A DNA stretch of 64,000 nucleotides from a virus (taxonomy: Duplodnaviria > Heunggongvirae > Uroviricota > Caudoviricetes), in the IMG/VR virus record IMGVR_UViG_2718218360_000002; one strand, given 5' to 3'. Positions 18,001 to 24,000 of this stretch are shown piece after piece. Made by a program: the position numbers. Position 1 is the first letter of the stretch; each line of letters begins with the position of its first letter.

Positions 18001-21000
18001 ACTGCGGATTAGGGGGGCGATGATTGACCCCGATCCGTCAGTATTAAAACCTGATCCGTCAGATAAAAGATCTTCTTGTCCGGACGTTTCACTGCCGGAC
18101 GAAAAACAATCATCACCAGTTGAGCGATTTCTGGAGAAACACCCGGATGCGCATACCTGGAATGTACCGAAGCGACAGTGGGGAACCCGGGAGGATTTGA
18201 CGTGTGCACAGTGGATCTGGGGACGGGTTGTTGCGTTGTATGAACAGGCCGCCAGTGATGATGGGGAGGTATCACGCCCCAGAGAGCCTAACTGGACGAC
18301 TTGGGCGAATGATGTGCGCATGATGCGTATGCTGGATGGACGTAGTCACCGACAGATTTGTGAAATGTTTGGGCGTGTTCAACGGGATTCGTTCTGGGTA
18401 AAAAACATCATGAGTCCGGCAAAACTCCGGGAAAAATGGGATGAGCTGGTTATTCGCCTGGGGCGTTCGCCCGCGCAGCGTTGCGTGAATCATATTTCTG
18501 AACCGGATACCGAAATTCCGCCGGGGTTCAGGGGGTAGCGCATCATGAAAAACATTACGTCAGGTGGTGTTCTGGCAAGAATCAGCAGATTTGTGCCGCA
18601 GGATGCAATCCCTCCGTACCGTACGGTGGCGGAGTGGCGGGAATGGCAGCTTGCTGAAGGGCGTAAGCGAAGCGAGGAGGTTAATCGTCTGAATCATCAG
18701 ACGCGGGTTGAAAAAATCATTAACCGCTCCGGTATCCAGCCGCTTCACCGGAAGTGTACGTTCTGTAACTACCGGGTGCAGAACGCTGGTCAGCGCCATG
18801 CCCTGAGTCAGGCGAAATCCATTGCGGCAGAGCTGGAAGGCGGCTGTACGAATTTTGTGTTCAGTGGCCGGCCTGGCACAGGAAAAAACCACCTGGCGGC
18901 GGCGATAGGCAATCGGCTGATGGAGAAGGGGCGCAGCGTAATTATCATCACTGTGTCTGATGTCATGAGTGTGTTGCACGACAGTTACGACAACGGCAAA
19001 TCAGGTGAAAAATTTTTACAGGAGCTTTGCGGGGTGGATTTGCTGGTCCTGGATGAAATTGGCATGCAGCGGGATACGCGTAATGAGCAGGTCACGCTTA
19101 ATCAGATTGTTGACCGCAGAACGGCATCGTTACTCAGTGTGGGGATGCTGACAAATCTTAATCATGCAGCGATGAATACACTTCTCGGCGAGCGGGTGAT
19201 GGACCGCATGTCCATGAACGGAGGTCGCTGGGTGACGTTTAACTGGGAGAGCTGGCGTCCGAACGTCAGCCAGCACAGGAACTGAGAAGTAATTTTTATC
19301 CGGAGGAAATTTTAATGGAAACCGTATTGCATGCACTGAAAGCGATGGGTAAAGCCAATTCTGTTGAACTGGCGGCGCGGCTTGATATCAGCCGTGAAGA
19401 AGTTCTCAACGAACTGTGGGAACTCAAAAAAAATAGCGTTGTTGATAAAACGGGTCACACCTGGTTTCTGGCTGGCGAAGGTGAATCCGGGGTAACCGAA
19501 GAGCGGCCAGTAAAATCTGAAGCACAGGATATGCTGACCAGGGAGGTCGAACAAAAAGTTACCGCAGACATGATGATTGAGTTTATCGGTCAGGATGGGG
19601 CTAAAACGTGTGAGGAACTGGCGGGTAAGTTCGGTGTCAGTACTCGCAAGGTTGCTTCCGCGCTGGCGGTGGTAACCGCAACGGGGCGGCTGGCACGCGT
19701 TAATCAGAACGGTAAATTTCGTTACTGCATGCCGGGCGATAATTTACCAGCAGAGCCGAAAGCCGCGCTGGTAACGGAAAGTGATGGTAAGGCCTTTCCT
19801 CAGCCAGCAGGTGCTGCGTTACCAGTCCGGGAAGCCGCAACACAGGAAGAAAATAAAACAGAAACTGTGGCGGTCACAGTGCAGTCACAGCCGTTGTTCA
19901 CCAGAAAACATCCGGATGGTCTGATTTTACCATCGCTGCATGTGGCTAACCGCGAGCTGCGCCGGGCAAAAGGTCAGGTTCAGAAGTGGGAGCGTGTCTG
20001 CGCCGCGCTGCGGGAGCTGAACAAGCACCGGGATATTGTTCGGCAGATTGTCGATTCATCCGGTCGTATTGTGTCGGAAAAGTGATTGCCGGAGGCGCTT
20101 ATGGCGAAACCTTTTACACACGAACAGCGTGAAGAACTGAAGGCCCGAATTATCGGGCTGGTACGCAAAAATGAACGCATGACGATATCACAACTGGAGA
20201 GAGCGACGGGAGCAGGCTGGCATTCAGTCAGACGTTGCCTTGTGGATGTACTGGCTTGCGGCGATTTATACATGCCCGGTAAATACGGTGTTTTTACATC
20301 AGAACAGGTGTATCGCGTATGGCGTAAGGCAGCGGAGAAAACAACCGACCAGACATTGATTCGAAAGTTACCAGACGGAGAAATACGCCGCTACGACAGA
20401 CAACAGAACATAATCTGTGGCGAGTGCCGGAAGAGTGAAGTTATGCTGCGTGTACTGGCGTTCTATCAGGGCAATTTTCAGGAGGCGGTATTGTGAGTGA
20501 ATTAGCTATCAGGCTTCAATTGTCGCTGGCATTCACATCAAAGGAGAAGAGCATGGAAATAAAACCAGAAGATGAGTTAAGCAATATCGTTTTATTTCCG
20601 GTAAAAGAGGATGACCCACGTAATCAGGTTAATTTTCTTTATGAGCCATCGGAAAGAGCATATTGTCATCACGCCTCTGTTCGGGTTGACGAAAAAGAGC
20701 GTCAGGTCCGCTGTAAAATCTGCGGTGCAGTTGTGGAGCCATTTGACTGGATGCTCTCTGTGGCGAAAAGAGAAACCAGACTGGCAGATGATGTAAGGAT
20801 CTTGCGCCAGGAGGAACGGGAAAGGCGGAGAAATATAGAAAAGCTAATTCAGATTGAGCGTAACGTGAAAGCGCGGATACGCAGGGTGACAAAATCCAGA
20901 ACTGAATAATTAAATTTAGCTCTGTTAAAAATTTAATCCTTAACCGGAGGTATATCAATGTCAAACGCACAGAAAGTTATTAACGCTGAAAAATATAACG

Positions 21001-24000
21001 AGTGGGTGAAAAAGTTCTCAGAGCAGATTTTTAAAATTACTGGCGACGAGAATGCGGCAAAAAATGAATTAGAGCCGTGGACACCTGAAGGTGTCGACCC
21101 AAATTATTGCTGGTGGGATGTTGATCCAGTTGATGCTGCAAATGAAGCTATGAGTTATCACAACGATTAATGTCAGGAGGCCGCCCGAAAGGGCGGTAAT
21201 GAAAAGTGACTGAATTAACCAAAGAGAAATTAATCGAAGAAGCCAAATTAAAAATAGCGATTGCGAAATGCTACCCCAATTCAGGGATGGCACGGGTAGA
21301 GGGCGAGTTATTCAAAATTGCACTGGCATCGCTGGAAGCAGAACCGATAGCGTGGGAATGCGGTGAAAACATAATCCTGTTTAACCCTGACACAGTTGAA
21401 GCATACGCAAAACGTGCGGAAATATCACCTAAACCACTATTCTCCGCGCCGCCAGCGCTGGTAGTGCCTGATAAGTTGCCGCGTGAATACAGAAACGGTT
21501 GGCCTCTTGCGTATAGTGATTATGCTGAAGGCTGGAACGACTGCCGCGAAGCCATGCTTCAGGGAGATAAATCATGATTAATCGTATCAAGCTGGAGCAC
21601 ATCCTCGAATATGCCAGGCAGCAGAGGCATATTGGTCAGCATTGTAAAATTCCACCAGGAGATATGGTTGAAATCATGGAGATTGCCATGCGCAAGGCTG
21701 GCAACTCTCCGGTAACTCCGGATGGTTGGATAAGCTGTAGTGAGCGAATGCCGAATACCAAAACAGCCGTTCTTGTTGCCGTGGAGTTTGACAGGAAAGG
21801 TGACTGGCGAATGAAATGGGCTACTTACATCCCGGGGCATCCTGACGCTAATGATGGGTGGATAATTCCTGGTGCGTCGTGGAAACCGTCACACTGGATG
21901 CCGCTACCAGAACCGCCGCAGGAGGTGCGCCAATGATCTGGCCTGAAGCCTTTGCAATTACAGGCGTTGCTATAGCTATTGATTTTTTAGTATATGTTAT
22001 TTGTCGGTGGGGGTAAAAACGTTCGCCGGGATTCACACCAAAGGAGGGAATATGTCGGATGATATTTCACTGGCAATGGAAGGTGCGCTGGCTGTTATTG
22101 CTGTTGTGGGCGTTTACTGCCTGGTTGTGTTTTTGATGGATCGACTAGGGAACTGAATTCATTACGATATGGGAATTCCCATATCGGGTAAAAACGGTTT
22201 GCGGTAAAGCGAGAGTTAAGTAGAATTGCTGCGGGTGCTTGAGGCTATCTGCCTCGGGCATGAACACCAACGGCAGATAGAGAAAAGCCCCAGTTAACAT
22301 TACGCGTCCGGCAAGACGCTTAACATTAATCTGAGGCCATATCTATGCTCTACACACGTAGGTTAGCCTCTTACGTGCCGAAAGGCAAGGAGAAGCAGGC
22401 TATGAAGCAGCAAAAGGCGATGCTAATCGCCCTGATCGTCATCTGTTTAACCGTCATAGTGACGGCACTGGTAACGAGGAAAGACCTCTGCGAGGTACGA
22501 ATCCGAACCGGCCAGACGGAGGTCGCTGTCTTCACAGCTTACGAACCTGAGGAGTAAGAGACCTGGCGGGGGAGAAATCCCTCGCCACCTCTGATGTGTC
22601 AGGCATCCTCAACGCACCCCACTTAACTCGCTTCGGCGGTTTTTTGTTGTTTATTTTCGGTGAGCGTGATGCATCTGGTTGTACCGATGTGGCTGGCTGA
22701 TTCTGTTATTCAGGTGGTTTATTGCTGTTGATTGGCATGTCTTCACGGCTAGAATCGAGGCTCTTAAGTAGCGCGCAGGGATAAGAGGGATGGCCCCCAT
22801 AAGAGGGATGGCCCCCATAAGGGGAGGTGTTTATAGTTCATGGGATTTTTGTTATGAACGATAAGGAATTAATTGCTGCGCTTTCTATACCAGGTAATTA
22901 TGAAGTAATAGTTCTTGGGAATGGTGAGTTTATCGTAATGCCATTGCCATCTGATGTTATTCTGATCAGCAAAGAATCGCATGCGGATTCGGTCAGTTAC
23001 TTCAGCATTAAAAGAGACTAGATTATAATGCTGTAGTAAAGCCAGCCTGAACAACTGGCGTCTGTCGCACCATTACGAGGATAGTAGTGGTGCATTACAA
23101 GAAACTTAACAATTCTGATAATTCAGCCGTCTTTGCCAGCAGGCACGGGCGGTGTTCTCATGCATTCAAATCTGACTGGTTCCAGCATGACCCATGCACT
23201 GAAGAACAGGCCGAATGGCTGATTCAGTGCTACCGCAGGCGTGGTTACGAGTTTCAGAAAGATCTCAGCTTCGATCGTCGTCACTGGATAATCTCCGCCA
23301 GGCTCCCTTATTCCGAACGCCCACCGCGTCCGTCCCGCACATTCCAGCAGCGCATCTGGAGGTAACGTGCGGGTATTACTTCGACCTGTTCTGGTACCGG
23401 AACTCGGTCTGGTTATCGTTAAGCCAGGCCGTGAATCAATGTCAGTATTCCATAACGGCAGAATATTGGTGGAGCCGGAACCGAAAAACATGCGCGGTCT
23501 GCCGTCCGGAGTCGTTCCTGCCGTTCGCCAGCCGCTGGCAGAGGATAAAACATTACTGCCATTTTTCAGCGATGAGCGGGTTATTCGTGCAGCAGGTGGT
23601 GCAGGTGCACTGTCTGACTGGTTATTACGTCACGTGAAATCCTGCCAGTGGCCACACGGCGATTATCATCACAGCGAAACAGTCATTCACCGTTATGGTA
23701 CCGGCGCGATGGTGTTGTGCTGGCACTGCGACAACCAGCTGCGCGACCAGACATCAGAATCACTCGATCAACTTGCTCAGCAGAATCTGGTTGCCTGGAT
23801 GATTGATGTCATCCGTCACGCAATAAGCGGTACGCAGGAGAGGGAGTTATCGCTGGCCGAATTATCCTGGTAGGCGGCCTGCAATCAGGTGGTGGATGCA
23901 CTACCTGAGGCAGTAGCGCGTCGTTCGCTGGGATTACCAGCGGAAAAAATCCGCTCCGTATACCGTGAGAGTGACATCGTACCGGGAGAACAGACAGCCA

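Follow-up and report, generated by a model that had tools for sequence, protein, structure and literature searches.

The closest described relatives of the locus analyzed here are hok/mok/sok of plasmid R1 (parB), the founding type I toxin–antitoxin system, and hokW/mokW/sokW of 933W and Sp5. HokW, which is only ∼44% identical to R1 Hok, is toxic in Sp5 and is counteracted by sokW (PMC8621323). After treatment with mitomycin C, and in a RecA-dependent manner, Sok disappears in Sp5 and HokW accumulates in the inner membrane; deletion of the locus halves phage release, and its role is seen as aiding phage release rather than plasmid maintenance (PMC8621323). The present analysis concerns a hok locus of this type in a 64,000-nucleotide stretch of a Caudoviricetes virus (IMG/VR record IMGVR_UViG_2718218360_000002, hereafter the window), together with two short open reading frames (ORFs) that precede it, mini27 of 27 codons and mini34 of 34 codons. 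The interval 21880–22200 is 100% identical to Escherichia coli O157:H7 chromosomes, such as that of strain TR01, and the gene order is lambdoid, running from replication genes, DUF1627 and DUF977 on to hok, DUF968, RusA and antiterminator Q. Because it lies between the replication genes and Q, the region corresponds to the nin region of a lambdoid O157:H7 prophage. We consider it likely that this part of the nin region comprises five accessory genes followed by a trio made of two real micropeptide genes and a hokW-type locus, with the micropeptides serving as membrane accessories and not as independent type I toxins.

Judged by its sequence, the window hok is a complete hokW-type hok/mok/sok type I toxin–antitoxin locus. 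It shares ∼95% DNA identity with the 933W/Sp5 locus, along with the mok-hok-sok layout, the leader RNA, the hexamers of the sok promoter and the fbi element, and differs from it in a few residues of the Hok C-terminus and in its location, since the 933W/Sp5 copy is found at the prophage end beside attR, whereas the window copy is in the nin region. It has every RNA element that defines the R1 system and, like it, a mok leader of 70 codons, though it sits in a prophage and not on a plasmid. A mini27-family ORF also stands upstream of the hokW locus of 933W; there, however, its stop codon abuts the hok promoter, lying 7 nt from the −35 element in loci of the 933W type, while in the window a 175-bp segment with mini34 and a palindrome lies between the two. 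As hokW-sokW of Sp5 has been characterized experimentally, the hok part of the locus is already known and offers nothing new. The synteny of the mini-ORFs with hok is a new point.

The toxin gene itself (22402–22557, + strand, 51 amino acids) matches Pfam HOK_GEF (PF01848; E 2.9e-23, 81.6 bits against a cutoff of 22) and PHROG 251, and is named “type I toxin-antitoxin system toxin HokD” by the Prokaryotic Genome Annotation Pipeline (PGAP) in TR01. It is contained in frame within a 70-codon ORF (22345–22557, +), recovered from the ORF list and laid out as the annotated mokW of 933W; across aligned loci the mok ATG is kept and codons 2–6 are variable. The Rfam model RF01794, whose orientation is that of the hok mRNA, matches the leader over its full length (22233–22407, +; 111.7 bits against a gathering score of 59). 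The full-length mok-hok mRNA, with its start at ∼22233 (22233–22652, +), has a minimum free energy fold of −166 kcal/mol (z −6.1), in which the tac element at 22233–22244 (GGGUGCUUGAGG, nucleotides 1–12) pairs with the fbi element at 22607–22619 (CCUCAACGCACCC, nucleotides 375–387). Sequence and fold place a GC hairpin 3′ of hok at 22565–22586 (+) and a terminator, a short hairpin with a T-run, at ∼22624–22652 (+). The position of the Sok antisense RNA (22283–22353, − strand) was transferred by alignment from the sokW misc_RNA of 933W (AF125520, NC_000924), and in the fold of the 77-nt antisense RNA a long hairpin precedes the U-tract CUUUUCUC (z −5.1). Thus, the defining elements as listed in PMC9841398, tac/fbi included, are all present in the window. 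The earlier note on this DNA, made from the sequence alone, had proposed a Hok-family toxin with an in-frame upstream leader that could act as mok, and had read the hok leader and the 3′ hairpin with its T-run as signs of a hok/sok-type locus; the HOK_GEF match, the mokW-like 70-codon ORF, the RF01794 match, the tac/fbi closure and the Sok hairpin bear both proposals out.

A putative hok promoter, TTGCGG-16 nt-TAGAAT, was read from the sequence at 22199–22226 (+); its position fits the start of the Rfam match, and TAGAAT does not vary among the 4 loci aligned. The putative sok promoter lies on the minus strand within the 5′ part of mok (22360–22388), with TTGCCT (22388–22383) and TAACCT (22365–22360) separated by 17 nt. 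Its hexamers are identical in 933W, Tritos and 813R8, so that the search of the hok leader for a Sok-like antisense promoter, which the earlier note had suggested, yields a conserved candidate. The oligonucleotide YO-421 carries altered bases across AGGTTA (PMC8621323), and we infer that it served as the primer for a promoter-less sokW construct. In a diverged metagenomic locus, the first hairpin of the hok leader shows a compensatory A>G/T>C change.

The first of the two short ORFs, mini27 (MIWPEAFAITGVAIAIDFLVYVICRWG, 21933–22016, +), starts with an ATG that overlaps the stop codon of the upstream DUF551 gene as ATGA, and the last codons of DUF551, CAG GAG GTG, contain its ribosome-binding site. 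The encoded peptide reads M-x-WPEAF, then ∼17 hydrophobic residues, then CRWG, and its best 15-residue Kyte–Doolittle window scores 2.3. By tblastn, relatives with 50–63% identity are found in 92 phage records, including 933W, VT2-Sakai, BP-4795 and some large phages, nearly all of them directly after DUF551 or an Ead/Ea22-like gene. For a census of the family, IMG/VR was scanned for ATG-NNN-TGGCCNGARGCNTTY, the latter encoding WPEAF, which gave a sample of at least 120 loci. An ORF of exactly 27 codons begins at the matched ATG in 94 of the 120 viral matches listed. With bacterial genome contigs as the control, the corresponding figure is 4 of the 120 matches listed, with 2 further short hydrophobic ORFs; among the genome matches listed, one plausible family member is seen, in Candidatus Erwinia dacicola. 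The window ORF has every trait of the family, that is, a length of 24–34 codons, the M-x-W-P-E-A-F start, the hydrophobic helix and the start/stop overlap.

The 51 distinct DNA versions of mini27 listed (32 peptides) differ at synonymous sites with pS 0.385 and at nonsynonymous sites with pN 0.130, a pN/pS of 0.34, which becomes 0.44 after dropping the seven codons fixed by the search pattern. Entropy in these versions is 0.79 at the third codon position versus 0.39 and 0.30 at the others. The diverged mini27 of locus L331, which does not carry the exact motif (MTLPDAFAIVGITIAIAIIVYSICRWL) and still has 27 codons, compares with the window version at pS 0.73 and pN 0.25. This codon substitution pattern points to purifying selection. 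Furthermore, ORF length, ATG, ribosome-binding site and stop are kept over the 51 versions, in loci that range from 40 to 66% G+C. The start overlaps the upstream stop, as ATGA or TGATG, in nearly every context, including the 24–34-codon versions in contigs of 40–66% G+C, and at least three unrelated upstream C-termini overlap it in this way (...WMPLPEPPQEVNQ, ...YLKRNGLISAEDVLR and ...YAENDLKNIEQEVNR), with GGAGG upstream in each. The codon for residue 2 always begins with A, as the ATGA overlap demands. Overlap with the stops of such varied genes might also be taken to mean that mini27 is joined to the upstream protein by a programmed frameshift, as a C-terminal membrane anchor. That is barely credible to us, as a fusion would need neither the conserved ATG nor the well-spaced GGAGG, no common slippery heptamer was seen in the three types of upstream end, and a second codon starting with A agrees with termination and subsequent re-initiation.

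The gene upstream of mini27 in the window belongs to DUF551, a term also used in structure papers on lambda Ea22, and a DUF551/Ead/Ea22-like gene, of the type of the lambda exo-xis region, precedes most mini27 relatives. The link is not exclusive, however, since mini27 also follows unrelated genes, and it is therefore not merely an appendage of DUF551. No model in Pfam, PHROG or NCBIfam matches mini27 significantly (the best, PHROG 38566 at E 0.01, was taken as noise), the term “WPEAF” retrieves only unrelated acronyms from the searched literature, and the ORF is not annotated in the TR01 (PGAP), 933W RefSeq or Stx2a_WGPS2 records. On these grounds we conclude that mini27 is a real, overlooked micropeptide gene whose translation would be coupled to that of the gene before it. 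The mini27 family is undescribed and, with the mini-ORF/hok synteny, is the new content of this analysis.

ORFs with M-x-WPEAF and a hydrophobic helix (24–34 codons) are also seen in unrelated contigs, each overlapping an upstream stop; examples from IMG/VR are L036 (7978–8070), L111 (4823–4906), L083, L100 and L107, all of 59–66% G+C, and L015 of 40% G+C. Read by eye from N-terminal sequences, the ORF lies between ATPase-like and sliding-clamp-like genes in L036 and L111, and two genes after a DUF551-like gene in L015. In the O157 version of mini27, codon 17 (21981–21983) places an Asp in mid-helix (AIAIDFLVY), a position held by Ala in 28 of the 32 distinct peptides listed; the closest relatives read AMAIAFLVY.

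The second ORF, mini34 (MSDDISLAMEGALAVIAVVGVYCLVVFLMDRLGN, 22052–22156, +), starts 35 nt past the end of mini27, with AGGAGG at 22042–22047 ending 4 nt before its ATG, and its best 15-residue Kyte–Doolittle window scores 3.0. The tandem arrangement of 27 and 34 codons, with a single hydrophobic helix each and the first overlapping the upstream stop by ATGA, is as the earlier note described it. The product of mini34 is known to PGAP as the hypothetical protein WP_001278450.1, and the ORF corresponds to the 3′ part of XECs145, which ribosome profiling of O157:H7 Sakai had brought to light as a novel small gene (Huecker et al. 2017, PMC5597208). The last 34 residues of XECs145 are identical to mini34; the difference is that the authors' frame has 53 codons, whereas the start that is conserved and has a ribosome-binding site lies further in, at the ATG at 22052. 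In lysogeny broth (LB), XECs145 is reported with 79 reads per kilobase per million mapped reads (RPKM) of RNA, 346 RPKM of footprints, a footprint/RNA ratio of 4.35 and a coverage of 0.99, and in brain heart infusion (BHI) the ratio is 1.14 (PMC5597208), values whose footprints may include multi-mapping reads, as several copies of the stretch are present in O157 genomes.

Close variants of mini34 give a pN/pS of 0.14, and the antisense frame that shares its wobble positions contains stop codons. Diverged relatives of 28–30 codons (VLVLKCALAIAAVMAIYCLAVVLMDRLSD, termed class B here, and MLAALKGFVAILAVVAIYCLVVVLMDRLSD) are 45–55% identical and have their own ribosome-binding site; for class B the pN/pS is 0.28. 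In a diverged locus the mini34 ribosome-binding site is kept while the spacer before it has changed. A profile search of 1.84 billion representative proteins returned 14 clusters only and no link to another toxin family, and nothing significant was found in Pfam, PHROGs or NCBIfam (the best, SecE at E 0.069, was taken as noise). With extended frames of the mini-ORFs, the large protein search gave near-identical E. coli entries only. Homology of mini34 to the Hok helix was considered and rejected, as the 33% identity over 21 residues is a hydrophobic low-complexity similarity. The earlier note had allowed that the two ORFs may be chance ORFs. This no longer holds, as both are conserved with coding-type substitutions and footprints on mini34 have been published; by its conservation, its substitutions and this ribosome profiling, mini34 is a real conserved gene and not a chance ORF.

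Apart from the possible multi-mapping of footprint reads, several points weigh against reading the locus as a hokW-type system preceded by two micropeptide genes. The mini27 counts come from a motif-based sample in which codons 1–7 are biased, and mini27 is shorter than the smallest ORFs (93 nt) in the Sakai ribosome-profiling table. The promoters of hok and sok both went unflagged in a generic promoter scan, so these assignments rest on conservation and on the 933W/Sp5 literature. Some hok loci retain only the last 6–11 codons of the class B ORF, and mini34 may always adjoin hok through physical linkage alone. Insertion into the membrane, topology and transcriptional read-through enter the reading as predictions. 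Finally, the pN/pS of mini27 is the same in the sense frame as in the wobble-sharing antisense frame (0.435 vs 0.431).

The last of these points would suit a real gene on the minus strand opposite mini27, with mini27 as its shadow. Shigella phage POCJ13 (L004) carries such an annotation, a 42-codon coding sequence at 2047–2175 (−) opposite its mini27 relative, and the antisense frame is almost always open (mean of 0.04 stop codons). The limits of the antisense open frame vary widely, however, one end lying anywhere between −120 and −8 codons and the other between +18 and +90, whereas the sense limits of mini27 are fixed. Replacements also average a BLOSUM62 score of +0.23 in the sense frame and are nonconservative in the antisense frame (−0.50), and a peptide read from the antisense frame would be hydrophilic and unconserved, its frame overlapping the 3′ end of DUF551. 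A minus-strand gene is therefore very improbable, and the POCJ13 coding sequence is probably a shadow ORF. As pN/pS is uninformative on the strand of mini27, the ORF is assigned to the sense strand by its unvarying limits, its start signals and the way its residues are replaced.

Type I toxin peptides, among them Ibs, Ldr, TisB, ShoB and Zor, consist of a short hydrophobic helix. The mini-ORF peptides share this feature and differ in that no antisense RNA, long structured leader or independent promoter was found for them. The earlier note had likened the two ORFs to such toxins, which would make the locus a stack of three toxin–antitoxin systems, with mini27 and mini34 each held in check by an antisense or nearby small RNA (sRNA). 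Both peptides are indeed short, hydrophobic and single-helix, comparable in size to toxins of the Ibs, Ldr or TisB type, both ORFs adjoin a real type I toxin gene in hok, and weak promoter-like sites occur on the minus strand at 22017–21989 and 22076–22049. However, the 4 promoter-like sites compare with 1.8 ± 1.6 expected, a number compatible with chance, and by reading of the sequences the antisense hexamers are kept neither in the common mini27 allele nor in the class B relatives. Nor do the ORFs have a long structured leader of their own: mini27 has no 5′ untranslated region, its ATG overlapping the upstream stop in nearly every context, and mini34 begins 35 nt after mini27. Folds of the two ORFs are near those of shuffled sequences (z 0.14 for mini27 and 0.71 for its antisense; −0.72 for mini34 and −0.31 for its antisense), and there is no Rfam match at the mini-ORFs. 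Moreover, mini34 is well translated in growing, uninduced cells, unlike an unrepressed toxin. By layout, neither mini-ORF resembles a type I toxin gene, and we judge a stack of three such loci to be clearly unlikely.

The two stretches might instead be conserved noncoding DNA, such as a linker for lambdoid recombination or an upstream part of the hok promoter, in which the frames are incidental. Consistent with this, mini27 marks the exact point where upstream genes of unrelated kinds meet downstream DNA that varies, its stop lies close to the hok −35 in 933W-type loci, an 11-nt direct repeat flanks the mini34 segment, and mini27 is unannotated in the records checked. Noncoding DNA would not be expected to concentrate its variation at third codon positions, with pN/pS of 0.14–0.44, to hold the length, start, ribosome-binding site and stop of mini27 constant over 51 versions listed at 40–66% G+C with stop codons in the other sense frames, to keep a ribosome-binding site while the spacer between the ORFs diverges, or to carry ribosome footprints at mini34. 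We therefore regard this alternative as quite improbable and retain the reading of mini27 and mini34 as micropeptide genes.

The association of these genes with hok differs between the two. In every context examined for the mini34 family, namely 14 unique IMG/VR contexts, HannyBb, Tritos, P0043, P0017 and P0019, mini34 or a diverged relative lies 40–250 nt upstream of mok/hok. The P0016 ORF is upstream of hok in 10 of 10 places, one of which has an insertion sequence in place of DUF551. mini34 is thus a dedicated upstream companion of phage hok loci. Viewed from hok, 40 unique upstream contexts contain mini27 in 18, mini34 or class B in 14 and neither in 16; loci without a mini34-family ORF, or with a remnant only, indicate that hok can persist without it. 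For mini27, hok lies within ∼300 nt downstream in 39 of the 79 unique contexts listed and not in the other 40, as expected of an independent gene that is often beside hok.

The 175-bp segment that carries mini34 and the palindrome is bracketed by an 11-nt direct repeat, GGGTAAAAACG, with its left copy at 22011–22021 and its right copy at 22186–22196; these are 2 copies in 64 kb versus 0.06 expected. Loci of the 933W type have a single near-copy of the repeat (GATAAAAACG) and lack the segment. The paired repeat here against the single near-copy there suggests that the segment was inserted or deleted by recombination at this short repeat. The segment was also considered as a small mobile element, which was set aside because no convincing terminal inverted repeats were found. 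Between mini34 and the hok promoter lies a perfect 22-bp palindrome, CGATATGGGAATTCCCATATCG (22165–22186, 100% complementary). It has no T-run on either side, and the 83-nt stretch that includes it folds with z −4.0. Related loci show degeneracy in the outer arms of the palindrome. Its role may lie in binding a protein or in the processing of RNA.

A diverged form of the trio is seen in L331–L334 from human gut metagenomes, where mini27 lacks the exact WPEAF, mini34 is 76% identical and the hok leader is present with the compensatory hairpin change GGCTGTCTGCC/GGCAGACAG. A further observation concerns the published constructs. The cloning primer YO-432 (…GAATCAATGACCTGGCCTGAAGC) of PMC8621323 begins at the ATG of the Sp5 mini27 relative (L001, 933W, 2762–2845), so that pBAD18-hokW-sokW, if YO-432 was used for it, appears to include all of the mini27 ORF ahead of hokW, but not the ribosome-binding site of mini27.

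The elements found in the window suggest that the locus operates in the way established for the family in the R1 and hokW literature. The mok-hok mRNA from ∼22233 would be held closed by tac/fbi pairing until slow trimming of the 3′ end frees the mok ribosome-binding site, and translation of mok would then permit that of hok. Sok, an unstable antisense RNA expected from TTGCCT-17-TAACCT within mok, would bind the opened mRNA and lead to its destruction. Upon loss of Sok, which in Sp5 occurs at prophage induction, Hok would enter the inner membrane and kill or lyse the cell. For the micropeptides, mini27 would be made by coupling or re-initiation at the ATGA, using the ribosome-binding site at the end of the upstream gene, and translation of mini34 would start from the AGGAGG that precedes it. 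Their hydrophobicity and the single Arg near each C-terminus predict that each peptide crosses the inner membrane once as a helix, its C-terminus facing the cytoplasm. We propose that mini27 and mini34 act as accessory membrane micropeptides of the early rightward operon. A terminator scan found no significant terminator between DUF551 and hok, so that early transcription after induction would be expected to continue across both mini-ORFs and into hok, running counter to the sok promoter. Such read-through could bear on the published loss of Sok at induction.

Enterobacteria have several small inner-membrane proteins that act by binding larger membrane proteins, including KdpF, MgtS, AcrZ and CydX. 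The mini-ORF peptides share with these a size of 27–34 amino acids, one hydrophobic helix and the lack of similarity to larger domains, and they differ in having no sequence relationship to them and in being phage-borne, in an early operon. One could go further and suppose that mini34, and perhaps mini27, are partners of Hok at the protein level, forming a three-peptide membrane module that tunes insertion or pore formation in the manner of an antiholin or a cofactor, or else that their transcription and translation tie the activation of hok, and interference with the sok promoter, to early-operon read-through following induction. Either could account for the restriction of HokW to RecA-dependent prophage induction. 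Relatives of mini34 are never seen without hok, while hok is often seen without them, an asymmetry that fits dependence of mini34 on hok, and the mini34-family ORF is under purifying selection at 45–50% identity beside nearly identical hok copies. We nevertheless hold a partnership of this kind to be rather doubtful, and prefer to see the two peptides as membrane accessories.

The results have a bearing on annotation, since a widespread phage family of 27 codons is absent from the annotations and family libraries checked. With its fixed length, its stop/start overlap and its embedded ribosome-binding site, mini27 is well suited as a test of how small genes are annotated and of translational coupling. 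In lambdoid phages, one or two conserved micropeptide genes usually stand before hok, a point on which the recent Hok census, silent on neighbors, does not touch. Phage hok loci reported in IMG/VR number 6,290. For studies of HokW induction, the mini-ORFs and read-through from the early operon belong to the native context.

With regard to the toxin itself, Tyr47 of the window hok (22540–22543, UAC then G) stands where a second cysteine is expected, and its UACGAA context resembles the anticodon loop of tRNA-Arg. According to the introduction of a Hok preprint, TadA recodes the hokC, hokD and hokE mRNAs at the corresponding position, turning Tyr into Cys. Given this recoding and the context of Tyr47, the window Hok may need A-to-I editing for full toxicity.

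Upstream of the trio, the genes following the replication genes form a co-oriented run on the plus strand, as the earlier note had stated; its count of five small genes agrees only when DUF551 is reckoned among them, as there are four besides DUF551. The profile searches it had proposed for the small proteins place all of them in known families. The first gene (20101–20496, +) belongs to DUF977 (Pfam E 3.6e-72) and matches PHROG 142, “Ren-like exclusion protein” (E 1.7e-43); PGAP names it “DUF977 family protein” in the matching TR01 stretch, and it occupies the slot of lambda ren after the replication genes. The second (20553–20909, +) encodes 118 amino acids with a CHH...CxxC cluster and a basic C-terminal helix and matches PHROG 1621, of unknown function (E 4.8e-54); Pfam gives it a subthreshold Zn-ribbon match only, and a PDB sequence search found no relative. 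Its start at 20553 is the PGAP choice, with an alternative GTG start at 20493. The third (20958–21170, +; 70 amino acids) matches PHROG 4659, of unknown function (E 3.7e-50), with no match in Pfam or NCBIfam and none meaningful in PDB. The fourth (21206–21577, +; 123 amino acids) matches PHROG 5117, also of unknown function (E 2.6e-50), and more weakly PHROG 660 and PHROG 60, with no match in Pfam or PDB. The DUF551 gene (21574–21936, +) matches Pfam PF04448 (E 6.3e-22, 78.7 bits against a cutoff of 22) and PHROG 924. NCBIfam and PDB sequence searches of the five proteins added nothing meaningful, and from their family matches they appear to be ordinary, poorly understood lambdoid accessory genes of known families.

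Elsewhere in the window, three RNA features score above the Rfam gathering score, namely DicF at 15751–15802 (−; 76.7 bits), STnc100 at 27334–27534 (+; 150 bits) and the anti-GcvB sRNA AgvB at 27537–27598 (−; 96.5 bits). Finally, just past the hok terminator, a tandem repeat of 18 nt in 2.6 copies (ATAAGAGGGATGGCCCCC) is found at 22781–22825.

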